A stretch of 60,056 bases of DNA from Acidimicrobiales bacterium (lineage in GTDB: Bacteria > Actinomycetota > Acidimicrobiia > Acidimicrobiales > JAUTXP01). Below the pieces are notes generated by a model. That model was not told where the DNA came from. It saw only the letters and a list, made by a program, of their open reading frames with translations, and did not search any database. Numbering within the stretch: the first letter of the stretch is position 1; each line of letters opens with the position of its first letter. Location of the stretch: NCBI GenBank assembly GCA_035651095.1, contig DASRGI010000089.1, positions 1 to 60,056 on the forward strand. Reading direction: 5' to 3'. The position numbers were made by a program, and so were the translations under genes. Of the stretch, positions 8,810 to 52,467 are shown piece by piece.

Positions 8810-10250
8810 GCCGCCGCCAACCGAAGACGGCCAACGCCAGCGCGGCCAGCAGTACCACGGGCCCGTCGCCTGTGCGGTTGTAGACGGTCTGGCCCTGGCG
8901 CAGCTTCACCGGCCGCTCCAGCACCTCCTGGCGTCCCAGGGTGCTGCGGACCAGCAGCCGGCCCCGGTGGTCGACGAACGCCGCGTACCCGGTGGGCGCG
9001 GCCTGCACCAGGTCCCGCCCGTTCTCCACGGCCCGCAGCCGGGCAGCGGCCACCTCGGTGGTGGGCACCTGGCTGGTCTTGAACGACGCCGCGTTGGTGG
9101 GCACGAACAGGAGCTGGCCCCCGTCGTGTACGGCGGCCCGGGCCCGGTCGGCGAAGTAGACCTCGTAGGAGATGGTGATGCCCACCCGGCCGGCAGGCGT
9201 GTCCATGGCCCCGCTGCCCGTGCCCGGGATGGCGTCGGCGGGCACGGCCGACAGGTCGGCCAGGCGCGACACCAGGCCCCGGGCGGGCACGTACTCGCCG
9301 AAGGGCACCCGGTGGACCTTCTCGTAGCGCCCGATGATGCGACCATCGGGGCCCCACAGCACGGCCGCGTTGCGGAAGTGGTTGGTGCCCGAACCCTCGA
9401 CCACCCCGCCCAGGATGGGGGCGCCGACAGCGCGGGCCAGGTTGCCCAGGAGCTCGGCTTCAGGGGTCTGGTCGACGGGGGCGTCCACGTCGATGACGTC
9501 CTCGGGCCACAGCACCAGGTCCACCGGCGGGCGCACCAGGGTGGTGGCCTGGAGGTGGCGGTCGAGGACCTCGCTCTTGTCCGTGTTGATAGCCCGCAGG
9601 CCGCGGGGCCCACCGCCCTGCACGGCCGCGACGGTGATCGTCTTCGCGGCGGGCCCGCCGTCGGGCGCCACCGCCCCGGCCACCACACCGCCCAGAGCCA
9701 CGGCCACCAGCACGCCACCCGCCACCCACCGGCGCCGGACGAGGGCGGCCAGCCCGCCGCCGGCGCAGGCCGTCAGCCCCAGCACCAGCAGGGCGCCGCC
9801 CAGCCGGGCCGAACCGAGGGCCGGGCCGCCCGTCTGGCCCAGCGCTACTCCGGCCATGGGCAGGCCGCCCAGCGGCACCCGGTCCCGGGCCGCCTCGGCC
9901 AAGACCAGCCCGGCGGGTACCAGCTCGGGCCGGCGCACCAGGGCCAGGCCGACGGTGACGAAGAAGGTCTCCAGCAACATCACCAGGAACGACCCTGGCC
10001 GGGTGAACTCGCCCATCCACCAGAACCCGATCACGAACTGCCCGAGCCCGAACGCCACCGCCGCTCCCAGCCGCGGTCGCAACGTCAGCCCGTCGAGGCG
10101 CCAGGCCAGCAGGCCCAGCCCGGCCACGGCCAGGGGCCACCAGCCCCACGGGGGCAGAGACACGGCGACCAGCACGCCGGCGAGCAAGCACAGGAGAGCG
10201 TTTCGGATGAGGGGGCAGGCTACGGTCCCGTCCTGCCCATGTGAACGCAT
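8793..10250 (-). CDS. apolipoprotein N-acyltransferase-like protein (CN-hydrolase domain, nucleophile position is Ser)
   Basis: The N-terminal half is multi-TM. The C-terminal half is nitrilase-fold: LVLWPE (Glu), YEKVHRVPFGEYVP (Lys), then GITISYEVYF where Lnt normally has ICYE. The start codon is uncertain. Confidence 0.7.
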   Translation of the reverse strand: MRSHGQDGTVACPLIRNALLCLLAGVLVAVSLPPWGWWPLAVAGLGLLAWRLDGLTLRPRLGAAVAFGLGQFVIGFWWMGEFTRPGSFLVMLLETFFVTVGLALVRRPELVPAGLVLAEAARDRVPLGGLPMAGVALGQTGGPALGSARLGGALLVLGLTACAGGGLAALVRRRWVAGGVLVAVALGGVVAGAVAPDGGPAAKTITVAAVQGGGPRGLRAINTDKSEVLDRHLQATTLVRPPVDLVLWPEDVIDVDAPVDQTPEAELLGNLARAVGAPILGGVVEGSGTNHFRNAAVLWGPDGRIIGRYEKVHRVPFGEYVPARGLVSRLADLSAVPADAIPGTGSGAMDTPAGRVGITISYEVYFADRARAAVHDGGQLLFVPTNAASFKTSQVPTTEVAAARLRAVENGRDLVQAAPTGYAAFVDHRGRLLVRSTLGRQEVLERPVKLRQGQTVYNRTGDGPVVLLAALALAVFGWRRLRSSS

Positions 10251-31120: not shown

Positions 31121-33006
31121 CTGATGTCCTCCGCCGTGCGCCATGTCCATACGCCCACGGCCGCGGCCGCCAGCACCACACCGACGACGATCACCGTCAC
31201 CTGGCTCACGAGGAAGCCCACGAACACGATGCCGACGCCCAGCGCGGAGAGGAAGGGGACGTACGTCTCCTCGGGCACCTGCATGATGTCCTCGACCACC
31301 GTGTCCATGCCCTCGGTGATGGGCGTTTGCCGCTCGAGGGCGGCGTCGACGCCACCGCCCTCGACGTTGGCCGCCGGCAGCACGCCGTCCCACATGGGAT
31401 GCCGGCTCGACACCGCGGGGATGACGGCGAAGTTCTCGTGCGGCGGGGGCGACGGTAACGACCACTCGAGGGTGTCGCCGTCCCACGGGTTGGGTCCGGC
31501 GGGGGCGCCGCGGGCCCGGCTCCAGAAGAAGTTGTAGAGCGAGACGGCGGTGCCCAGGCCGAACAGGAAGCCGCCGACGGTGGACAGCATGTTGAGCCAG
31601 TCCCATCCCAACCCGGCCGGGTACGTGTAGATGCGCCGGGGCATGCCCAACAGCCCCAGGATGTGTTGTGGGAAGAAGCCGAGGTTGAAGCCGGCGAACA
31701 TGATCCAGAAGCTCCACTTGCCCAACCGCTCCGACAGCATGCGGCCGGTCATCTTGGGGAGCCAGTAGTAGAGGGCGGCGAAGATGGGGAACAGGACACC
31801 GCCCACGAGCACGTAGTGGAAGTGGGCCACCACGAAGTACGTGTCGTGCACCTGCCAGTCGAACGGCATCACTGCCACCATCACGCCGGTGATCCCGCCG
31901 AGCACGAAGATCGACACGAAGCCGATGGTGTAGAGCAGCGGTGTCGACCACCGGACCGTGCCCCGCCACAGCGTGGCGATGAGGGCGAAGATCACGATGC
32001 CGCTCGGTATGGAGATGGTGAGGCTCGCTCCCGAGAAGAAGCCCATGGCCTGGGACGGCAGGCCGGTGGCGAACATGTGGTGCACCCATAGCCCGAAGCT
32101 CACGAAGCCGATGCCGACGACGGCGGTGACCACCCACACATACGCCTTCAGCCGGGCCTTGGCGAACACGGGGACGATGGTGGCGATCATGCCGATGGCC
32201 GGCACCAGGAGGATGTACACCTCGGGGTGTCCCCAGAACCAGAACAGGTGCTGGAACAGGAGGGGGCTCCCCTTGCGCAACGGGTCGTAGAACGCGGTGC
32301 CCACCTTGCGGTCCATCTCCAGGAGGCCGCACGCCACGGTCAGGGCGGGCACGGCGAAGAGGATCATGAAGCCCATGACGAGGATCGACCACACGAAGAC
32401 GGGCATGCGGTTCAACGTCATCCCGGGGGCGCGCATCTTGAACACGGTGACGATGAAGTTGACGGCGCCGACCGTCGTCGAGATGCCGAGGAAGATGACG
32501 CCCAGGCCCCAGAAGTCGATGTTCAGCGCGGGCGAGTAGGTCTTTCCTGTGAGGGGCACGTACGAGAACCAGCCCCCGTCGGGCGCCTTCCCCATGAACT
32601 GGCTGGTGAACATGAAGAGGCCCGACAGGAGGAACACCCAGTAGCTGAAGGCGTTCAGCCGGGGGAACGCCATGTCGCGCGTGCCCAGCTGCAAGGGGAG
32701 CAGGTAGTTGCCGAAGCCGGCCAGAACCGGGGTGTTGAAGAGGAAGATCATCGTGGTGCCGTGCATGGTGAACAGCTGGTTGTAGGCGCTGGGCCCGAGC
32801 ACGTGGAGGTCGGGCTCGGCCAACTGCACGCGCATCACCAGCGCCTGCAGCCCGGCCACGAAGAAGAAGATGAAGGCGGTGTAGATGTACCGCACGCCGA
32901 TGCGCTTGTGATCGACACTGGTGAGGAAGCCGATCAGGCCGGGCGCGTCGCGCCAGGCGGTCTCGACCACGTCCTCGTCGACCACGGGCAGGGCGGTGGT
33001 CGTCAC
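31117..33006 (-). CDS. ctaD: cytochrome c oxidase subunit I
   Basis: The GTG at 33006 overlaps the ctaC stop (GTGA). ..TSVDHKRIGVRYI.., ..LFWFWGHPEVYILLVPA.., ..HHMFATG.., ..VVAHFHYVLVGG... Confidence 0.9.
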   Translation of the reverse strand: MTTTALPVVDEDVVETAWRDAPGLIGFLTSVDHKRIGVRYIYTAFIFFFVAGLQALVMRVQLAEPDLHVLGPSAYNQLFTMHGTTMIFLFNTPVLAGFGNYLLPLQLGTRDMAFPRLNAFSYWVFLLSGLFMFTSQFMGKAPDGGWFSYVPLTGKTYSPALNIDFWGLGVIFLGISTTVGAVNFIVTVFKMRAPGMTLNRMPVFVWSILVMGFMILFAVPALTVACGLLEMDRKVGTAFYDPLRKGSPLLFQHLFWFWGHPEVYILLVPAIGMIATIVPVFAKARLKAYVWVVTAVVGIGFVSFGLWVHHMFATGLPSQAMGFFSGASLTISIPSGIVIFALIATLWRGTVRWSTPLLYTIGFVSIFVLGGITGVMVAVMPFDWQVHDTYFVVAHFHYVLVGGVLFPIFAALYYWLPKMTGRMLSERLGKWSFWIMFAGFNLGFFPQHILGLLGMPRRIYTYPAGLGWDWLNMLSTVGGFLFGLGTAVSLYNFFWSRARGAPAGPNPWDGDTLEWSLPSPPPHENFAVIPAVSSRHPMWDGVLPAANVEGGGVDAALERQTPITEGMDTVVEDIMQVPEETYVPFLSALGVGIVFVGFLVSQVTVIVVGVVLAAAAVGVWTWRTAEDIR

Positions 33007-33923
33007 TTCAGTGCCTCCAGGTAGGCGAGCACCGCTTGGAGCTGGTCGGGGCTGAGGTCGACGTCGGGCATGAGGCTCCCCCGCTTCAGGGACTGGGCGT
33101 GCTGGACCCACTCGGCCAGGTGCTCACGATCGTTGGGCACGGTGACGGCGCCAAGGGTGGTTCGGCTGGCCAGGTGGGTGAGATCGGGCCCGAAGGTGCC
33201 GTCGGCGGGCGTGCCCCGCACCGTGTGGCAGCCCGCGCACGTGAGGCGGGAGAAGAGCGCTTCCCCGGCGACGTCGGTGGGGGCGTCACCGGCCTGGTCG
33301 GCCACCCAGGTGCGGAACAGGCCGGGCGGGTCGGCGATCACGAGGAAGTCCATGTGGGCGTGTTGCAGCCCGCAGAACTCGGCGCACAGGCCCCGGTAGG
33401 TCCCCGGGTGGTCGGCCCTGATGTGGATGAGGTTCGTCTTGCCGGGGATGAGGTCGACCTTGCCCGCCAGCTCCGGCACCCAGAAGCTGTGGTTGACGTC
33501 CACCGACGTGAGCGTGATGTCGACGGGCTCACCCACCGGGATGTGGATCTCGTTGGCCGTGACCGCTCGCTGGGCTGGGTACTTGACCGCCCACCAGTAC
33601 TGGTACCCGGTGACCTCGACCTGCAGGGCATTGGGCTCCGAGCGGGTGAGCCGGTGGGTGGTGTGGATGGTGACGACGGCGAGGAGGAGCACCACCGCGC
33701 TGGGCACCACCAGCCCGCCGGCCACGATGAATGCGTGGTCGGTGAAGCGGGTGGGACGCTCGCCCTTGCGGAAGAGGCCGAACACGAACAGGCCCATGGT
33801 CACCACGTAGATGACGGTGGCGATGCCGACCATGAGCCAGAAGACGTGGGCCAGGTCGCGTGCCGCCGGCCCCTTCGGGTCGAGGGCACTGGGCGCCTTG
33901 GCGAGGAGAAGCGCCAGCGTCAC
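33003..33923 (-). CDS. ctaC: cytochrome c oxidase subunit II with fused C-terminal cytochrome c domain (caa3 type)
   Basis: CuA site CAEFCGLQHAHM, then a heme c motif CAGCH plus a distal ..GSLMP... The GTG at 33923 overlaps the qcrA stop. Confidence 0.9.
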   Translation of the reverse strand: MTLALLLAKAPSALDPKGPAARDLAHVFWLMVGIATVIYVVTMGLFVFGLFRKGERPTRFTDHAFIVAGGLVVPSAVVLLLAVVTIHTTHRLTRSEPNALQVEVTGYQYWWAVKYPAQRAVTANEIHIPVGEPVDITLTSVDVNHSFWVPELAGKVDLIPGKTNLIHIRADHPGTYRGLCAEFCGLQHAHMDFLVIADPPGLFRTWVADQAGDAPTDVAGEALFSRLTCAGCHTVRGTPADGTFGPDLTHLASRTTLGAVTVPNDREHLAEWVQHAQSLKRGSLMPDVDLSPDQLQAVLAYLEALK

Positions 33924-34801
33924 CGGCGGTTCCAGAAGGCTGGGCCGATGGGCTCCGGGTAGTCACTGCGCGCCCGGAGGAACCCTTGGCCGTCGACCCG
34001 CAGCGGCAGCTGGGGGAGCGACCGGGTGGCCGGGCCGAAAACGGGCCGGGCCCCGTCGAGCACGTCGAAGGCCGACTGGTGGCAGGGGCACAGCAACTGG
34101 TGGGTCTCGACCTGGTACAGGCCCACGGGGCAGCCGGCGTGGGTGCAGACCTTGTTGTAGGCCACGTAGCCGTTGGGGGCCCACGCTTCCCGGCCGGGGC
34201 GGGGCCGGTTGAGGTCGGCCTCCACCCGCACCAGCACGGTCTGGCCGTCGGCCGAGCCGGCGTGGCCTTCGGGATAGACGGTGAACATGCCGCCGATGGG
34301 GATGTCCTCGGCCCGGATGGGCTCACCGTCCTCGCCCACCACCCGGCTGCCGGGGCGCCAGGGCGTGCGGTACAGGGACTTGCCCGGGCTGGGGCCGAGG
34401 GAGCGGATGGGGAACACGGCGGCCACGCCCAGGGCGGCCGCGGCCAGGCCCAGCATGCGGGTGAGGAGCTTGCGCCGGCCGATGACCCCGCCCCGCTCGA
34501 AGCTCTCCTCCACCACCTCGAGCTCTGCTTCGGTGGCCTCGTGGAGGTGGCGCTCCTCAACCACCGGGCCCTGGGGGAGGAGGCGGTGGCCCCACACGAC
34601 GAAGCCGAAGCCGAACCCGCCCAGGGCGATGGCCAGCAGCACCCCCTCGGCCTGGGGCTGGCCGCCGTTGAAGTAGACGACGGCCAGGGCGATGGCGGCC
34701 ACGATGGTCACGGCGAAGCCGAGGGCGGCGCGCAGCTCGTCGCCGGTGCCCCCGGGGACGGGACCGCCGGTGAGGTCGCTCCCGGGATCGGTGTCCGTCA
34801 C
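33920..34801 (-). CDS. qcrA: Rieske iron-sulfur subunit of the bc1 complex
   Basis: The GTG at 34801 overlaps the qcrC stop (GTGA). TM helices, then CTHAGCP ... CPCHQSAF. Confidence 0.85.
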   Translation of the reverse strand: MTDTDPGSDLTGGPVPGGTGDELRAALGFAVTIVAAIALAVVYFNGGQPQAEGVLLAIALGGFGFGFVVWGHRLLPQGPVVEERHLHEATEAELEVVEESFERGGVIGRRKLLTRMLGLAAAALGVAAVFPIRSLGPSPGKSLYRTPWRPGSRVVGEDGEPIRAEDIPIGGMFTVYPEGHAGSADGQTVLVRVEADLNRPRPGREAWAPNGYVAYNKVCTHAGCPVGLYQVETHQLLCPCHQSAFDVLDGARPVFGPATRSLPQLPLRVDGQGFLRARSDYPEPIGPAFWNRR

Positions 34802-35571
34802 TCCCGCTCCCCGATCCAGAAGAGGGCGAGCAGCAGCGCGCCGATGCCCGCCACCCAACCGACCAGTCCCTCGGCGAACGGGCCCAGGTGCCACAGGCCC
34901 AGGCCGCCCCGGTCGTCGGGGTGGCGCAGCGACACCACGTAGGCGGCGATGGAGTCGAGTTCGTGCTCGTTGATCGTGCGGGGGCTGAAGCCGGGCATGT
35001 CCACGGGGCCGGCCCGCACCGCCTCGCCGATCTGGGTGGGCGTCGACTGGTGGAGGGACGGGGCGATGAGGCCGAGCAGGGCGCCGCCCTCGCCCGCCCA
35101 CTGGTGGCAGGACGCGCAGTTGGCCCGGTACAGCTCGCCGCCGGCGGCGAGGTCGCCCTTCTCGGGGTGGACGTCGGGGATGGGCGGGCCGCCGGCGATG
35201 AACGGCGTCATGTAGTTGATGAGGGCGTCGATCTGGGCCCGGTCGTAGGCGGGCGGGCGCCGGCGCCGGGGGTCGTCCTCGCTGCGGATGGGCATGCGCC
35301 CGGTGGACAAGGCGTAGTCGACCTCGGCCTCGCCGATGCCCTGGAGGGCCACGCCCTGGTCCGTCCCCTGGCCGCTGTCACCGTGGCAGTACGCGCAGTC
35401 TCGCTGGTACAGGTACCGGCCGTCCGTGCTGTGGCGCTCCGTCGGCGGGATGGGCCCGGGCGCGGCCAACGCGTGGCGCGGGGCCGGCAACGACAGGAAC
35501 GCCAGCGTCAACATGCACGGGAGCGCGACGACACGGGGGAGCACCAGGACTGGCCCTGCCCACCCGCTCAC
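34798..35571 (-). CDS. qcrC: diheme cytochrome c subunit (QcrC type)
   Basis: Two CxxCH motifs (CAYCH, CASCH) and a C-terminal TM anchor. The start is uncertain: GTG 35571, GTG 35544 or ATG 35514. Confidence 0.8.
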   Translation of the reverse strand: MSGWAGPVLVLPRVVALPCMLTLAFLSLPAPRHALAAPGPIPPTERHSTDGRYLYQRDCAYCHGDSGQGTDQGVALQGIGEAEVDYALSTGRMPIRSEDDPRRRRPPAYDRAQIDALINYMTPFIAGGPPIPDVHPEKGDLAAGGELYRANCASCHQWAGEGGALLGLIAPSLHQSTPTQIGEAVRAGPVDMPGFSPRTINEHELDSIAAYVVSLRHPDDRGGLGLWHLGPFAEGLVGWVAGIGALLLALFWIGERE

Positions 35572-35632
35572 CCCCCCGAAACCTGCCCACTCGATCGCCC
35601 ATCGATCGTGGCCGAGCAGGGTAGGTTCCCCG

Positions 35633-38600
35633 ATGATGCGAAAGCTGATCGCGGCGTGGCCGGCGGCCCGGCAGCTGTCCGGCGACCTGTTGGGGCTGGG
35701 CAAGGCGGTGAAGTCGGAGCGGTACGAGCAGCTGATGCCCCGCACGGCCGAGGCCGACGCCGTCGTGCGCTCGGTGTGCCCGTACTGCGCCGTGGGCTGC
35801 GGCCAGCGGGTGTTCGTCCAGGACGGGCGGATAACGCAGATCGAGGGCGACCCCGACAGCCCCATCTCCCGGGGCCGGCTCTGCCCGAAGGGGTCGGCTA
35901 CCAAGAGCCTGGTCACCAACCCCGCCCGTGAGTACAAGGTGAAGTACCGCCGGCCCCATGGCACCGAGTGGGAGGAGCTCCCCCTCGACCGGGCCATGGA
36001 CATGATCGCCGACCGGGTGCTCGCCACCCGCGAGGCCACTTGGCAGGAGAACGACCCCGACCATCCGGAGTGGGCCCACCTGCGGCGCACCCTCGGTTTC
36101 GCCAGCCTCGGAGGAGCGACCCTCGACAACGAGGAGAACTACCTCATGAAGAAGCTGTACACGGCTCTGGGAGCCATCCAGATCGAGAACCAGGCCCGCA
36201 TATGACACTCCTCCACCGTGCCCAGTTTGGGTACCTCGTTCGGTAGGGGCGGCGCCACCACGTTCCAGCAGGACCTGGCCAACAGCGACTGCATCGTGAT
36301 CATGGGTTCGAACATGGCGGAGTGCCACCCAGTGGGCTTCCAGTGGGTGATGGAGGCGCGCCAACGGGGCGCCACCGTCATCCACGTCGACCCCCGGTTC
36401 ACGCGCACGAGCGCGGTGTCCGACGTGCATGTCCCCATCCGGGCCGGGTCGGACATCGCCTTCCTCGGGGCCATCGTCAACTACATCCTCGAGAACGGCC
36501 GCGAGTTCCGCGAGTACGTCGAGCACTACACCAACGCGTCCCTCATCGTCCGGGAGGATTTCAAGGACACCGAGGATCTCGACGGCATCTTCTCGGGCTG
36601 GGACCCGGAGGAGGCCCAGTACGAGGTCGAGTCGTGGCAGTACGAAGGCGTGGAGACGCCGGCGACGGCCCACCATGGCGAGTCCGATGCTGCGCTGGGG
36701 GAGCGCCACGGCAGCCACGGTGGCCAGACCGGTGGTCTGCCCCGCCGCCTGGACCCCACGCTCCAGCACCCGCGCTGCGTGTTCCAGCTCCTGAAGAAGC
36801 ACTTCGCCCGCTACACGCCCGAGGTGGTGGAGGAGCTGTGCGGCGTCCCCCGCGACCGGTTCCTCCAGGTGGCCGAGGCGCTGTGTGACAACTCCGGCCG
36901 CGACCGCACCTCGGCCTTCTGCTACGCCGTGGGCTGGACCCAGCACTCGGTGGGCGTCCAGTACATCCGCACTGCGGCCATCATCCAGCTCCTGCTCGGG
37001 AACATCGGCCGGCCCGGCGGCGGCATCCTCGCCCTGCGGGGCCACGCCAGCATCCAGGGCTCCACCGACATCCCCACGCTCTACAACATCCTGCCCGGCT
37101 ACCTCCCCATGCCCCATGGCATGGAGGGCCCGGACCTGGCCGGCTACCTCGACATCAACGCGTCCAAGACCGGCTTCTGGGCCCACATGGGCGAATACTT
37201 CGTGAGCCTGCTGAAGGCCTGGTGGGGTGACGCAGCTACGGCCGAGAACGACTTCTGCTTCGACTACCTGCCGCGTATCACGGGCGACCACTCCACCTAC
37301 CAGACCGTCACCGACATGGCCGACGGCAAGGTGCAGGGCTTCTTCGTCGTGGGCGAGAACCCGGCCGTGGGCTCGGCCAACTCCAAGCTCCACCGGTTGG
37401 CCTTGGCCCAGCTCGACTGGCTGGTGGTGCGCGACTTCGTGGAGATCGAAACGGCGTCGTTCTGGTACGACGGCCCCGAGATCGACACGGGTGAGCTGCG
37501 CACGCAGGACATCAAGACCGAGGTGTTCTTGATGCCGGCGGCCACCCACACGGAGAAGGACGGCACATTCACCAACACGCAGCGCCTGTTGCAGTGGCAC
37601 CACAAGGCGGTCGAGCCCCAGGGGGACTGCCGGTCCGACCTCTGGTTCTACTTCCACCTGGGCCGCATCATCCGGGAGAAGCTGGCCGGGTCGACCGACC
37701 CCAAGGACCGCCCCATCCTCGACCTCACGTGGGACTACCCGACCATCGGCGACATCGCCGAGCCCGACGCCGAGGCCGTGCTCCGGGAGATCAACGGGTG
37801 GGGTCCCGACGGGCGCACGCTGTCGAGCTACACGGAGATGAAGGCGGACGGGTCGACGGCGGGCGGCTGCTGGATCTACTGCGGCTGCTATGCCGACGAG
37901 ACCAACCAGACGGCCCGGCGCAAGCCTGGCCAGGACCAGAACTGGGTCGCGCCCGAGTGGGGATGGGCGTGGCCGTCCAACCGGCGCACGCTCTACAACC
38001 GGGCGTCGGCCGACCCCGAGGGCAAGCCCTGGTCGGAGCGCAAGCGGTACGTGTGGTGGGACGAGGAACAGGAGCGCTGGACGGGTTACGACGTCCCCGA
38101 CTTCGAGGCCACCAAGCGGCCCGACTACCGCCCGGCCCAGGATGCCACTGGGGAAGCGGCCATCGCCGGCGACGCCCCCTTCATCATGCAGGGCGACGGG
38201 CTGGGCTGGCTGTTCGTGCCCAACGGCCTGAAGGACGGGCCCCTGCCCACCCACTACGAGCCCCACGAATCGCCGTTCCGGAACCCCCTCTACTCGCAGC
38301 AGTCCAACCCGGCGCGCCTGCAGAAGTGGCGCAAGGACAACCGGTACAACCCCACCGACGGCGAGCCCGGCGCCGACGTGTTCCCGTACGTCATGACCAC
38401 CTACCGGGTGACCGAACAGCACACCGCCGGTGGCATGAGCCGATTCATCAATTATCTTTCCGAACTGCAACCGGAGATGTTCTGCGAGGTCAGCCCGCAA
38501 CTGGCGGCCGAGCGGGGTCTCACCCACGGGGAGTTCGCCACCATCATCACGTCCCGGACGGCCATCGAGGCGCGAGTGCTGGTGACCGACCGCGTCGCCC

Positions 38601-46593: not shown

Positions 46594-47526
46594 ATGGGAG
46601 CGGGCGACACGAGGTGGCGGGGCCAACCGGGGCGGGTGGAGGTGTGGTACGCCACCTTCACCGGGGGCTGGATCCACTACGAACTGGTGTCGCCTGCCAG
46701 CGACGCCGATGGGGCCTATGGCCATGGCTGGGTGGCCATGTTCCCGCCCGGGCGGGCGCCCGCGGTGGCCCGGTTCGGGCCGTCTTCGGTCCTGGTGGGC
46801 AGTGAGCCCTGGTTCGCGGCGGGACCGTACCGGGCCGACGCCGGCACGCTGGCCGGCGACACGTGGTCGCTCACCTACACGACCGATGCGCCGCCCCTCT
46901 GGACCTTTCCGCGGTGGGCGTGGGAACGGGAGTCGCTGCCCGGGGCCCAGGTGGTGGTATCGCCCTCGGCCACCTTCGACGGCTGGGTGGAGGTAGGGGG
47001 CGAACGCTTCGAGGTCCGGGCCGAACCGGGCGCCCTGGCCCACATCTACGGCCACGGCAACGCCCAACGCTGGGCCTGGCTGCACGCCGACCTCGGTGAC
47101 GGCGACGTGCTGGAGATCGTGGCCGCCGTCTCCCGGCGCCCCGCTCTGCGCCGCCTGCCGCCGCTGGCTCTGGTGCAGTTGCGGGCCGGGGGCGAGGACT
47201 GGCCCCGCGACCCGCTGGCCGTGGCTCCCCTGTTCCGCACCCGGATCGGCCTGCCTCGCTGGTCCGTGAAGGGAACGGTCGGTCGCCGCCGCCTCCGGGT
47301 CGACGTCAACGTGCCCCCGGCCGCGTCGGTCACCCTCGACTACACCGACCCCGATGGTGCCGCGGCCGAGTGCAGCAACAGCGAGCGGGCCGACGCCCGC
47401 ATCCGGGTGCAGCGCTGGGCCCGGGGCCGGGGATGGCGCACCGAGCGGGAGTGGAACCTGGCCGGCACGGCCCACGCCGAGGTGGGCCTGCGCGACGAGG
47501 TGGGCCTGCGCGACGAGCGCGGCTAG
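46594..47526 (+). CDS. hypothetical Trp-rich protein (possibly tocopherol-cyclase/AttH-like beta fold)
   Basis: 310-aa ORF with good GC3 bias. ..AHIYGHGNAQRWAWLHADLGDG.. is reminiscent of that fold, but this is a weak call. It ends with a duplicated EVGLRD EVGLRD. Confidence 0.45.
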   Translation: MGAGDTRWRGQPGRVEVWYATFTGGWIHYELVSPASDADGAYGHGWVAMFPPGRAPAVARFGPSSVLVGSEPWFAAGPYRADAGTLAGDTWSLTYTTDAPPLWTFPRWAWERESLPGAQVVVSPSATFDGWVEVGGERFEVRAEPGALAHIYGHGNAQRWAWLHADLGDGDVLEIVAAVSRRPALRRLPPLALVQLRAGGEDWPRDPLAVAPLFRTRIGLPRWSVKGTVGRRRLRVDVNVPPAASVTLDYTDPDGAAAECSNSERADARIRVQRWARGRGWRTEREWNLAGTAHAEVGLRDEVGLRDERG

Positions 47527-49049
47527 AGCGGCGGGAGGTGCGTGAGGTACGCGGGCAGGTGCACGTTGAGCAGGGCCAGGGTGCGCCGGAGCATCACCAC
47601 CGCGGCTTCGTGCACGTCGGGGGCCAACGTCGTTACCCGGACGTGCTCGCACACGGCGTCGGCCAGCCGTACGAGGTGCGACGGATCGCGCCGCGCCACC
47701 GTCTCGTCCACCGCCTCGGGCAGGGAGTCGAGCAGCAGCAACAGTGACCGCAGGTCGCCCGGTCGGGCGGCCGTGGCCGTCGCCGCGCCGGCCGGGTTCG
47801 ACAGCACGCGCATCAGCGAGGCGAAGCGCGGCAAGGTCTTGGACCACAGCTCGCCTTCGTCCCACACCAGGTCGCGCATTCGGGGCACGCGCAGGAAGTG
47901 GTACTTCACCAGGGCGACGGCCAGTTGCTCGCAGACCTCTTCCTCGAACGGGTCCAGGTCGGCGTGCCACGACGCCCGGAACCGGTCCGCCACCGAATCG
48001 AGCAGCCCGTCCACGTCCACCACGTCGTCGCCTCGCGAACTCATCTTGCGGGTGCCCAGGCTGACCATGCCGTGATAGACGGCCTCGGTGTCGCCGGCCA
48101 GGCGAGCCATGCCGAAGCGGCGAACCACCTCGACGAGGCCCGGGAACGTGTCGGCGTACTCCCGGCCCATGAGGAACAGGAACCGAGCGCCGGGCGCCAG
48201 CTCGTGGCGACGGATCGACGCGCCCAGGTAGTACGCGTGCAACAGGGGACTGCCGTCGGCGCGCAGCAGCGTGACCGGGTGCTCGCCGTCGTCAGTGAGG
48301 TCGGCGTACACCGACCCGTCATCGCGTACGTGGCAGGTCCGCCCCAGCTGCGCGGCGATGGCCGCCTTGGCCAACGGGATGGTGTCGCCCTCTCGCAGGG
48401 TCACGTCGAAGGCGGTGCCCAGCCGGGTGTACGTCTGGCGGATGCCCTCGAATGCGGCCGCCGTCACGGCCCGGTTGTGGGCGAGGAGCGCGGGATCGCC
48501 CGCCTCCAACCCGGCCGCCACCTGGGCCAGGGCGTCGTCGTCGAGGCCCGGTTGGAAGCTCACGTAGAAGTCCTGCACGGCGTGGTCGAGCTTCCGACTG
48601 GACGACACCAGCGACGGCGTGCCCGCCCGCTGGTAGCCGAGGACGGCCTTGGCGATGTGCCGGCCCCAGTCGCTGGGCTGGTCGCTGCGGACCACGTGCC
48701 AGCCGGTGGCGGCCAGCACGTGGGCGAGGGCCATACCCATCACGTTGGTGCGCAGATGGCCGAGGTGGAGGGCCTTGTTGAGGTTGGGACAGGAGAACTG
48801 CACCTGCACCATGCGTCCGTCGCCCCGGTTGGTGCAGCCGTACGTCGCCCGGCTCCCGAGGATGCCGGCGACCACGCTCGAGCGCAGGGTGTCGAGGGCG
48901 GGCGTGACATACACGTTGGGCGGCACGGGGACGGCCCGGTCCACCTCGGGGAGCAACGCCAACCGCCGGGCCTCTCCCGCGCACGCGTCCCTGTCCATGC
49001 CCACGCCGACCTTGAAGTCGCCGAGGGCGCGCTTGTCGCACGCGAGCAC
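47523..49049 (-). CDS. divergent arginyl-tRNA synthetase-like protein (class I aaRS paralog)
   Basis: VQFSCPNLNKALHLGHLRTNVMGMALAHVL..SDQPSDWGRHI (ArgRS-type HIGH region and DWG motif), ..LGTRKMSSRGDDVVDVDGLLD.. (the MSTR-type KMSKS equivalent), and a helical DALR-like C-terminus. The N-terminal add-on domain is short or absent. Confidence 0.65.
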   Translation of the reverse strand: MLACDKRALGDFKVGVGMDRDACAGEARRLALLPEVDRAVPVPPNVYVTPALDTLRSSVVAGILGSRATYGCTNRGDGRMVQVQFSCPNLNKALHLGHLRTNVMGMALAHVLAATGWHVVRSDQPSDWGRHIAKAVLGYQRAGTPSLVSSSRKLDHAVQDFYVSFQPGLDDDALAQVAAGLEAGDPALLAHNRAVTAAAFEGIRQTYTRLGTAFDVTLREGDTIPLAKAAIAAQLGRTCHVRDDGSVYADLTDDGEHPVTLLRADGSPLLHAYYLGASIRRHELAPGARFLFLMGREYADTFPGLVEVVRRFGMARLAGDTEAVYHGMVSLGTRKMSSRGDDVVDVDGLLDSVADRFRASWHADLDPFEEEVCEQLAVALVKYHFLRVPRMRDLVWDEGELWSKTLPRFASLMRVLSNPAGAATATAARPGDLRSLLLLLDSLPEAVDETVARRDPSHLVRLADAVCEHVRVTTLAPDVHEAAVVMLRRTLALLNVHLPAYLTHLPPL

Positions 49050-49105
49050 CAGCGCATCGCCGCCGAGAATCCGGGCCAGCGCGCGCGCCGCCGGGCGACC
49101 GTCGC

Positions 49106-50293
49106 TCAGTGTTCGCCCTCGTGGAAGGACGGGAGCAGCGCGGCGTCCATGCGGGCCCGGAGATACCGGACCCCGGCCGTTCCGCCCGTGCCCGGAACCT
49201 CACCGATCAGCCGGCTGGCGACGGCCAAGTGCGTGCGCTTCCACTGGAGCCACTCGTGGTCGAGCTCGGCGCCGGCTCGGAGGAGCCGGGCCTGGCTCGA
49301 GGGGCCGAGGCGGGTGGCGGTGTCCTGTATGGCGCCGTCCAGCGGCGTGTCGTCGAGGACGCACAGGGCTTCGATGGCCGTGAAGGTCTGCGACTGCAAG
49401 CCGCTGGCCCCCTCCGTGAACTGGCGGATCACGGCAAAGCGCTCCCTGGGCATGGTGGCGAGGATCCGGAAGAATGGCATGGCGCGGCCGAGCGCGACCC
49501 GAGCGGCTTCGAGCCGCTCGATGCCGGCGCCGCTGTCACCTGCCGCCAGGGCGTCGCGCGCCGCCGTCGCCGCCCGGAGCACGACGCCGAAGGCCGTCTC
49601 GAAGAGTTGGAGCACCCGCAGGAACATGATCTCGTCGGGCACGTCGGTCGACGGCACCACGGCCAGGCGGGCGAAGCGGTGGACGCCGAGGGGCACCACG
49701 GCGAGGAAGCGTTCGGCCAGGCGCTGAGCGGCTTCGGCCTCGGCGGTGCCCCGCGGCGACCGGGCCACCGGCCACAGGGGTGCGACCTCGTCCCGGTCGA
49801 GGAGGTCCGCCCGGTTGTGGGTGAGGATGGTGGCGATGGTCGAGACCCGCCGAGCCCGCAGGCGGTCACCGTGCTCGAGCACGGCCGTGCTCTCGCCCAG
49901 CAGGAGGTCGGCCAGGAGGATGGTCGTGAGCACATCGGCGCTGACCGACGCCCGCACCAGGTCCTCGTACAGGCGGGTCCCGACGTACGTGGCGTAGGTG
50001 CAATCCCGGCGGTGGGCATCGACGAGCATGGGGAGCCAGCGCCCGAGGAACCACGTCCACGACGGCACATGGCCGGGTCCAACCGTGAATGATTGCTCGA
50101 TCGAATCGAGCAATTCCAGGCAATGGATGTCGGCGTTCGCCCGGCCTCGTTCCCAGAAATGCCCCGCGACAGTGGCCGCAGGAAATGCCGCGCATGCACC
50201 CTCCGACGGGAGCACCGTTCCTCTGGCCATGGCCCATTCGTGCCAGGCGCGAACGGCGTCCGACGCGCTGGTCACGAGGCGTTGCTCGCGCAC
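49106..50293 (-). CDS. tryptophan 2,3-dioxygenase-superfamily heme protein with an N-terminal extension of about 170 aa
   Basis: ..PDEIMFLRVLQLFETAF.., ..FAVIRQFTEGASGLQSQTFTAIEAL.., ..WKRTHLAVASRLIGEVPGTGGTAGVRYL.. match the three TDO signature blocks. The proximal His is kept and the distal His position reads Leu. The start is uncertain: GTG 50293, GTG 50275 or ATG 50230. Confidence 0.6.
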   Translation of the reverse strand: MREQRLVTSASDAVRAWHEWAMARGTVLPSEGACAAFPAATVAGHFWERGRANADIHCLELLDSIEQSFTVGPGHVPSWTWFLGRWLPMLVDAHRRDCTYATYVGTRLYEDLVRASVSADVLTTILLADLLLGESTAVLEHGDRLRARRVSTIATILTHNRADLLDRDEVAPLWPVARSPRGTAEAEAAQRLAERFLAVVPLGVHRFARLAVVPSTDVPDEIMFLRVLQLFETAFGVVLRAATAARDALAAGDSGAGIERLEAARVALGRAMPFFRILATMPRERFAVIRQFTEGASGLQSQTFTAIEALCVLDDTPLDGAIQDTATRLGPSSQARLLRAGAELDHEWLQWKRTHLAVASRLIGEVPGTGGTAGVRYLRARMDAALLPSFHEGEH

Positions 50294-50316
50294 CCTCCAC
50301 ACCCCCCCGTTCCTGA

Positions 50317-52467
<2,151 letters not shown>

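Follow-up and report, generated by a model that had tools for sequence, protein, structure and literature searches.

Organization of the locus

The locus studied here lies in a 60,056-nt stretch of contig DASRGI010000089.1 from the Acidimicrobiales assembly GCA_035651095.1 (hereafter the window; G+C ~72%), in which a tRNA gene with a large D-loop insert, a gene for a heme protein resembling tryptophan 2,3-dioxygenase (TDO), and a gene for a protein resembling arginyl-tRNA synthetase (ArgRS) follow one another on the reverse strand. The source genome (G000; loci, genomes, contigs, and protein clusters are numbered below with the prefixes L, G, C, and P, respectively) is a soil metagenome-assembled genome (MAG) of 3.35 Mb with a completeness of 91%. 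The tRNA, read directly from the sequence, spans 242 nt (50324..50565, -), and its 3' end lies ~22 nt from the start codon of the first gene. This gene (49106..50302, -) encodes a TDO-like heme enzyme of the type of the bacterial heme-dependent tryptophan hydroxylases (bTPH), starting at GTG 50302 (398 aa) or at GTG 50293 (395 aa), and is separated by an intergenic spacer of 56 nt (49050..49105) from the gene of the ArgRS-derived class I synthetase paralog (47523..49049, -; 508 aa). The spacer confirms an earlier interpretation made from the letters of the DNA (the sequence-only reading), in which two co-directional genes were placed 56 nt apart. The motifs quoted in that reading were all found in the two open reading frames (ORFs), namely FLRVLQLFETAF and WKRTHLAVASRLIGEVPGTGGTAG in the TDO-like ORF and CPNLNKALHLGHLR, together with SDWG and MSSR, in the ArgRS-like ORF. 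The longest TDO-like ORF (49106..50353, -; 415 aa) overlaps the tRNA 3' end at 50324, and therefore the true start is GTG 50302 or GTG 50293; the 398-aa version matches a database cluster (P0001).

A candidate sigma-70-like promoter, identified as a consensus match only (TTGACA-16 nt-TACACT, 50582..50609, -), ends 16 nt before the tRNA 5' end. It agrees with 10 of 12 consensus positions and is the sole match in 3.5 kb, for which shuffled sequences predict 0.1, and it sits in a 100-nt divergent region shared with the thiamine pyrophosphate (TPP) riboswitch of thiC, both of which are located upstream of the module and point away from it. A scan of the locus uncovered no terminator-like site inside the unit, including the 56-nt spacer. 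The tRNA, the heme enzyme, and the synthetase form a self-contained three-part module that is probably transcribed as one unit.

The heme enzyme

The heme protein matched PF03301 with 50.6 bits (cut-off 34.9) in two partial stretches (profile positions 38-138 and 281-331 of 346), and the profile of its family aligned to TDO structures (E 1e-30) with an invariant His358 opposite the proximal His. With the roles of TDO residues taken from PMC2652831, comparison with XcTDO revealed that the proximal His (heme ligand) and Phe51 (indole pocket) are kept, and that Arg117 (carboxylate clamp) and Thr254 (ammonium and carboxylate) are kept and invariant. In all 14 family members, Phe replaces Tyr113 of the carboxylate motif and the distal His55 is Leu or Ile, the window protein having Leu. 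The profile-to-PDB alignment thus agrees with the sequence-only reading, which had noticed a proximal heme His and a distal His changed to Leu. That reading had also allowed for an ordinary kynA product upon proper alignment; an assignment to kynA/TDO was rejected in view of the replaced distal His (Leu/Ile) and Tyr113 (Phe), the length of 395-398 aa versus ~280 aa, and the partial PF03301 match. The AlphaFold2 (AF2) model of the protein (pLDDT 88) had MarE and TDO as its closest folds, both covering the C-terminal part only.

According to PMC13091554 and PMC13141384, which describe the work of Shi et al. (2023), bTPH enzymes such as Luz15 of Actinomadura luzonensis convert free L-Trp to 5-hydroxy-Trp, and the architecture outlined in PMC13091554 combines ~200 N-terminal aa carrying a YXXY motif with a C-terminal TDO-like heme domain in which the distal His is replaced. 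The window protein has an N-terminal extension of ~175 aa, which appeared at first to fit no recognised family and is now seen as the bTPH hallmark; its YXXY motif reads Y100-A-T-Y103, with Y103 present in 13/13 aligned sequences. Among the Luz15 residues that PMC13091554 names as selected by homology (Y106, F229, I233, F236, Y240, L283, F291, R295, S302, A303, H375, I383, Y397, and L398), 14/14 were matched by identical or conservative family columns at constant offsets of -3, -2, and -17 when the residue numbers were compared, and the matched residues include the distal-position Ile/Leu and the YXXY tyrosine. By these sequence features, the heme protein belongs to the bTPH (Luz15-type) family.

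Close resemblance to the heme protein was limited to 14-16 clusters in a collection of 5.8 billion proteins, in which the profile search did not reach Luz15. Homologs of ~30% identity were found in the genomes of ~30 species, mostly cultured actinomycetes (among them Streptomyces, Kitasatospora, and Amycolatopsis) plus several MAGs, and the two homologs whose surroundings were read are located directly after an MbtH gene in non-ribosomal peptide synthetase (NRPS) clusters with hydroxyphenylglycine genes. The bTPH-like homologs of the cultured actinomycetes (L029, L030, and L034-L054) are candidate hydroxy-tryptophan suppliers for lipopeptides.

The ArgRS-derived synthetase paralog

The ArgRS-like protein matched PF00750 with 85.2 bits (cut-off 23.3). 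The source genome harbors its canonical argS on contig C99 (382 bits versus 86 bits for the window copy) and two divergent ArgRS-like copies of ~86-89 bits, one in the window and one on C263. As a normal argS is present elsewhere in the genome, the window copy is a paralog, as had been supposed from the sequence. A profile search over 1.84 billion representative proteins yielded ~60 top matches that outscore the first canonical ArgRS (329 bits), nearly all of them without the E/D-Y-D triad of ArgRS; a few further triad-less paralogs score below 329 bits. Phylogenetic analysis placed this paralog family in a monophyletic group apart from canonical ArgRS (SH-aLRT 99), and the proteins with a Q / L (M, V) / Y-F pocket, including the window protein, formed one subclade of 19 rows with a support of 100. 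The window gene is thus neither the only argS of its genome nor grouped with housekeeping ArgRS. Members of the family were present in only 5/61 related genomes.

Yeast ArgRS was the best PDB sequence match of the window synthetase, and the AF2 model (pLDDT 91) had the yeast ArgRS-tRNA-Arg complex 1f7u as its best Foldseek match, with a query TM of 0.82 over the whole chain; MshC was also among the fold matches. The HLGH motif, the invariant Lys before HIGH, MSSR (the KMSK equivalent), and the C-terminal anticodon-binding helices are kept, and the protein thus combines the ArgRS fold with HIGH and a KMSK equivalent. The ~508 aa, the HLGH, DWG, and MSSR motifs, and the DALR-like tail listed in the sequence-only reading were all recovered. 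In ArgRS, the full Add1 domain of ~100 aa reads D-loop position 20, and its A20 pocket motif has been described (PMC3956977). In the window synthetase, Add1 has ~60 aa (up to ~100 aa in relatives) and retains the beta-alpha-beta-beta core and the P-N-x-Y motif; the view that most of the N-terminal D-loop-binding domain is missing therefore holds with regard to its reduction but not to its absence. The residues around HIGH, formerly considered unusual, follow the 'SPNxxKxxHxGHLR' pattern of yeast ArgRS, E. coli ArgRS, and the canonical ArgRS of the source genome, and the earlier impression arose from comparison with the wrong ArgRS subtype. The true oddity in this region is that Gln replaces the acidic residue located four positions upstream of the Asn.

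The guanidinium group of arginine is bound by D118, Y313, and D317 in E. coli ArgRS (PMC3956977), which correspond to E148, Y347, and D351 in yeast. Where ArgRS has Glu/Asp, Tyr, and Asp, the window synthetase has Gln84, Leu, and Tyr, with the main-chain ligand Asn kept, and the TDO-linked clade shows Q / L (M or V in two members) / Y or F throughout. The guanidinium triad of a functional ArgRS is thus replaced, suggesting that arginine is an unlikely substrate of the enzyme, and the arginine-derived chemistry once proposed for the locus is likewise unlikely. The side-chain pocket would now be neutral and aromatic.

The dedicated tRNA

The 5' end of the tRNA (GCGCCUGUAGCUCAA) is at 50565, and its 3' part runs from GAGCAGUGGCCUUGUAAGCCGC to GGGUUCGAAUCCCACCAGGCGCACCA; the two halves combine into one tRNA with a canonical acceptor stem (GCGCCUG/CAGGCGC), anticodon arm (loop CUUGUAA, anticodon UGU), and T arm; it has A73, and its CCA is encoded in the gene. 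An insert of ~165 nt is enclosed by the D stem (GCUC/GAGC), and the Rfam tRNA model gave a partial match at 50335-50388 with 29.9 bits. An interpretation of the 3' fragment as the remnant of an integration attachment site was rejected, with the 5' half found 164 nt upstream and the whole element conserved.

Equivalent tRNAs adjoin the pair or its fused form in all such loci checked (L024, L025, L027, L028, L031, and L032) and were also detected beside other members of the synthetase family (L006, L019, L021, L022, and L023). Overall, a special tRNA was adjacent in 11/12 of the ArgRS-like paralog loci examined, L020 being the exception, which upholds the tRNA link surmised in the sequence-only reading. 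The insert ranges from none (L028 and L023) through an 11-nt hairpin (L019) to ~175 nt. In all 11 special tRNAs, the anticodon loop, the T loop, and the GG of the D loop are canonical, and the anticodons are UGU, UAU, or UAA only. Their acceptor stem and A73 hardly vary, and only some of the genes encode the CCA.

The source genome harbors exactly two special tRNAs, one located beside each ArgRS-like paralog, with acceptor stem and anticodon in common and different inserts, which suggests that the D-loop insert discriminates between the two systems. The tRNA core showed 72% identity to the tRNA-Arg(CCG) of the source genome and 71% to its tRNA-Met and tRNA-Asp; these near-equal values allow no conclusion on the origin of the tRNA. 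In the same genome, ARAGORN reported a 98-nt 'tRNA-Arg(CCG)' (G000:C34, 6558..6655) whose G+C is very high and which lacks a normal T loop; this is probably a false call.

Conservation of the heme enzyme-synthetase pair

On contigs of sufficient length, every homolog of the heme protein with at least 37% identity adjoins an ArgRS-like gene of the Q/L/Y-F clade. The pair is adjacent in L024 (80% identical to the window and syntenic with thiC), in L025/L026 (within a ribosomal-protein cluster), in L027, and in L028 (with the gene order reversed), and four further pairs were deduced from partner proteins that come from contigs of equal length; in total, it was found in at least nine metagenome contigs with differing surroundings. 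Moreover, four fusion proteins (P0027-P0029 and P0034; 801-932 aa) carry the heme domain first and the synthetase second, the fused versions being without ~100 aa of the N-terminal domain of the heme protein. The distance matrices of the two partners were correlated (Mantel r 0.69), with 1/5000 permutations equally high. The fusions and the co-divergence exclude chance adjacency, and the conservation of the pair across genomes, which the sequence-only reading had left to be checked in relatives, is thereby established. PADLOC defence-system models gave no meaningful match for the two proteins or their conserved neighbours. In L028, a baeRF (eRF1-like) family protein (8873..9988) is encoded three genes from the pair with the insert-free tRNA(UAA), which may be a coincidence.

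Sister cassettes of the synthetase family

Other members of the synthetase family were accompanied by other enzymes that tailor amino acids, and their pocket residues vary from cassette to cassette. On C263 of the source genome (approx. 31300-36000; L006 4313..8973, -), an 896-aa fusion of an ArgRS-like and an inositol-monophosphatase-family protein is followed by a pyridoxal phosphate (PLP)-dependent (PALP) enzyme and a tRNA(UGU) with a D-loop insert of ~150 nt that differs from that of the window; an inosine-uridine nucleoside hydrolase is encoded upstream of this cassette. L019 (G054:C17, 2460..11867) combines a tRNA(UGU) with a PLP enzyme and an argininosuccinate-lyase-like protein. Also encoded there are a DTD2-type aminoacyl-tRNA deacylase domain and an Fmt-type formyltransferase, which belong to families that normally act on charged tRNAs, as well as the ArgRS-like synthetase and a polyprenyl synthetase. 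In G001, the partner of the first ArgRS-like copy is a luciferase-like monooxygenase, and the second copy (L020, G001:C61, 8025..11363) is fused to a Lys/Orn N-monooxygenase (1112 aa) with no tRNA nearby; this fusion resembles the logic of hydrazine synthetases, in which an N-hydroxylase is joined to a ligase derived from an aminoacyl-tRNA synthetase (aaRS). P0052 is a 970-aa fusion of an ArgRS-like protein and a heme-oxygenase-like diiron domain. In the nearest genomes (G054, G001, G002, and G026), a tblastn search detected no TDO-like gene beside the ArgRS-like paralogs. The sister cassettes appear to follow a common plan, in which one enzyme produces or modifies an amino acid, the synthetase has a new pocket to match, and the tRNA is private to the system.

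Proposed function and alternative explanations

Our favoured mechanism, to which we give about an even chance, is that the heme enzyme oxidises tryptophan, the ArgRS-derived synthetase attaches the product to the dedicated tRNA, and the consumer lies outside the module. Based on its family membership and the kept carboxylate/ammonium clamp, the heme enzyme would oxidise free L-tryptophan, most likely by ring hydroxylation; free Trp is the most likely substrate because the clamp residues are kept and the bTPH enzymes provide a precedent. The ArgRS-derived enzyme, in which the ATP and tRNA machinery is kept, would then activate the modified tryptophan and esterify it to the 3' end of the tRNA, and the D-loop domain together with the shortened Add1 may keep the pair apart from normal translation and from the second cassette of the same genome. 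Finally, the charged tRNA would pass the amino acid to a consumer encoded outside the module, for which an unlinked aminoacyl-tRNA-dependent transferase seems likelier than the ribosome.

Several points weigh against this mechanism. The assignment of the heme protein to the bTPH family uses the concordance of residue numbers with Luz15, and one Luz15 residue selected with Rosetta, P305, mismatches an invariant Gln of the family. The amino acid is predicted from family resemblance, and bTPH relatives of ~30% identity could perform other oxidations. In the ~30 genomes with such ~30%-identity homologs, no ArgRS-like neighbour was found beside them; bTPH-like genes thus occur without it, indicating that the hydroxylase does not depend on the synthetase. 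Likewise, the absence of a nearby tRNA from L020 implies that some family members may act without a tRNA. Near the module, no transferase of the kind that uses aminoacyl-tRNA is conserved, which leaves the proposed pathway without a visible end, and the sequence was found in one soil DNA run and in no RNA run.

The order of the two reactions could also be reversed, with plain tryptophan or another amino acid loaded first and the heme enzyme then oxidising the aminoacyl-tRNA, in the manner of SelA, SepCysS, GatCAB, and Fmt. As fused proteins, the two enzymes could more readily channel an intermediate bound to the tRNA, the sister cluster L019 has both an Fmt-type formyltransferase and a DTD2-type deacylase, and the change of Tyr113 to Phe removes one carboxylate ligand. 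However, the equivalents of Arg117 and Thr254, which clamp the free carboxylate and ammonium groups in TDO, are invariant, the characterised bTPH enzymes use free L-Trp, and the Streptomyces homologs in NRPS clusters work without a tRNA or synthetase partner, so that this order of events seems fairly unlikely. It is distinctly unlikely that the synthetase is instead a tRNA-independent or tRNA-cofactor ligase, which, in the manner of MshC or the MetRS-like domain of hydrazine synthetases, would activate an amino acid and move it to a small-molecule acceptor such as hydroxy-tryptophan, the tRNA-like RNA being an activating cofactor or a regulatory leader. Ligases that derive from aaRS and do not charge tRNA are well known, with MshC among the fold matches here; ArgRS requires bound tRNA for amino-acid activation (PMC3956977), so a cofactor role could persist; the Lys/Orn N-monooxygenase fusion of L020, with no tRNA nearby, recalls the hydrazine-synthetase logic; and the tRNA of the window stops ~22 nt short of the first start codon. 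Such a ligase is at odds with the retained full anticodon-binding domain and Add1 core, with the perfect acceptor stems and A73, with a CCA that is sometimes encoded and sometimes not, as in real tRNA genes, and with the adjacency of tRNA and synthetase in 11/12 loci. A spare or inhibitor-resistant ArgRS (self-resistance or backup), or a chance neighbour of the heme enzyme, is scarcely credible. Duplicated aaRS genes in biosynthetic clusters are often resistance genes, as generally known (reviewed in PMC12945691), and Pfam names the protein ArgRS, but its three guanidinium-binding residues are all replaced, no inhibitor gene cluster surrounds the module in six unrelated contexts, and chance is excluded by the fusions and the co-divergence; the self-resistance option of the sequence-only reading is thus disfavoured.

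The remaining alternatives involve the ribosome. In a natural code expansion or ambiguous decoding, oxidised tryptophan would be inserted at a rare sense codon, namely ACA here and AUA or UUA in the sister modules. The module has the parts list of the pyrrolysine system, in that a dedicated tRNA, a synthetase, and a putative amino-acid gene stand together (as judged from the predicted enzyme functions), and no transferase is linked to it. The canonical anticodon loop, T loop, and D-loop GG of 11/11 special tRNAs and the scores of 63-67 bits that the two insert-free members obtain as ordinary tRNAs point in the same direction, as do the anticodons, which are confined to UGU, UAU, and UAA: in the source genome, UUA (0.09 per 1000) and AUA (0.29) are the two rarest sense codons, and ACA is used at 1.2 per 1000. 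This match implies that the anticodon is not drifting freely and that either contact with translation is minimised or the use is conditional. Nevertheless, a freed codon, as expected of a code-expansion cassette, was not observed in the small samples compared. G001, of the same family as the source genome, possesses all canonical tRNAs, tRNA-Thr(UGU) among them, besides its special tRNA(UGU); in the comparison of the window with L024, its 80%-identical relative, the three ACA codons are aligned to ACG, ACC, and TCC; and the eight TTA codons compared between L031 and L032 align with CTC, CTG, and TTG or fall at non-conserved sites. The cognate codon is almost absent from the module's own genes, and a 165-nt elbow domain would be hard to fit through the ribosome. 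The screening of flanking genes for rare-codon enrichment retrieved two small genes upstream of fusions, with two TTA codons each at positions that are not conserved. In G054 (99.5% complete, with a special tRNA(UGU)), canonical tRNA-Thr(UGU) was undetected, but so were tRNA-His and tRNA-Trp, and the missing tRNA-Thr(UGU) consequently proves nothing. Small as they are, these samples argue against constitutive codon reassignment, and code expansion or ambiguous decoding is considered unlikely. A related and quite improbable idea is that the whole ~60-cluster family consists of orthogonal pairs that deliver non-standard amino acids (here hydroxy-tryptophan) to the ribosome at UUA, AUA, and ACA, the rarest sense codons of high-GC genomes, in a conditional or low-level manner. 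The negative recoding tests weigh against constitutive reassignment and not against conditional use, and the observation that this idea accounts for best is that 11 independent tRNAs are confined to three anticodons for rare codons. If true, it might decorate particular proteins, or poison the translation of AT-richer invaders, which use these codons far more than the host does.

Comparison with known systems and implications

A literature search retrieved no description of a paralog family derived from ArgRS, of a bTPH paired with a synthetase, or of tRNAs of this kind. To our knowledge, extremely few synthetase/tRNA pairs in nature are dedicated to a non-standard amino acid, the pyrrolysine system being the best known besides the indirect phosphoserine and selenocysteine routes. 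Orthogonal pairs of this kind are the raw material of genetic-code engineering. Like the pyrrolysine system (tRNA-Pyl, PylS, and PylBCD), the module is a portable cassette of a tRNA, a synthetase, and an amino-acid-making enzyme. It differs in that its synthetase is a class I, ArgRS-derived enzyme (PylS belongs to class II), its tRNAs carry sense anticodons rather than CUA, and the small recoding tests were negative. The NOS-TrpRS II pair of Deinococcus radiodurans likewise joins a Trp-modifying heme enzyme to an auxiliary class I synthetase, which can charge 4-nitro-Trp or 5-hydroxy-Trp; unlike the module, that pair comprises a TrpRS paralog working with normal tRNA-Trp and a nitric oxide synthase, with neither a dedicated tRNA nor a fusion. 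SepRS/SepCysS, SelA, GatCAB, and Fmt, as well as MshC and the MetRS-like domain of hydrazine synthetases, provide further parallels, with class I scaffolds reused for non-standard substrates as in the module, and the partners in the sister cassettes (PLP enzyme, formyltransferase, and N-hydroxylase) recall these tRNA-dependent conversion and aaRS-like ligase systems. However, none of these systems has ArgRS as its ancestor, and none involves a tRNA carrying a D-loop domain or a partner enzyme with the TDO fold.

With canonical ArgRS (yeast 1f7u/1bs2 and E. coli 4oby), the synthetase of the module shares the whole-chain fold, HIGH with the preceding Lys, MSxR, the DALR-type domain, and an Add1 core with N-x-Y, but it is only ~20% identical, has a shortened Add1 and Gln/Leu/Tyr-Phe in place of the triad, and falls in a separate clade. 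Its partner tRNA, unlike the substrate of ArgRS, has an anticodon (UGU/UAU/UAA) that is not one of arginine and a D-loop domain. The heme enzyme resembles Luz15 in its ~400 aa, the YXXY N-terminal and TDO-like C-terminal domains, the proximal His, and the distal Ile/Leu. The bTPH members described so far occur by themselves or within natural-product clusters and supply free hydroxy-Trp for small molecules, whereas the enzyme of the module is tied or fused to a synthetase and a tRNA; moreover, it is only ~30% identical to the homologs of cultured strains, and its reaction on the ring is a prediction. Taken together, the parts of the module are of known kinds, while their combination and the family behind it appear to be new.

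If the proposed charging is true, the locus would provide new naturally orthogonal class I pairs, one of them for hydroxy-tryptophan, a new case of synthetase specificity and tRNA identity co-evolving, and a novelty in either biosynthesis (a route that depends on tRNA) or recoding (of a new kind), and heme tryptophan hydroxylases would reach into RNA-linked metabolism. Beyond the window, the significance lies in a whole ArgRS-derived family with rebuilt pockets, in which an enzyme for an unusual amino acid is welded on or adjacent and nearly all members have their own tRNA, often with a large D-loop domain.

Neighbouring gene

A convergent 310-aa ORF (46594..47526, +) lies beyond the synthetase gene in the window. 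Its match to tocopherol cyclase is sub-threshold (24.7 bits versus a cut-off of 26.6), and the ORF is absent from the corresponding place in the 80%-identical relative L024. The stop of this ORF overlaps that of the ArgRS-like gene in the tetranucleotide CTAG.

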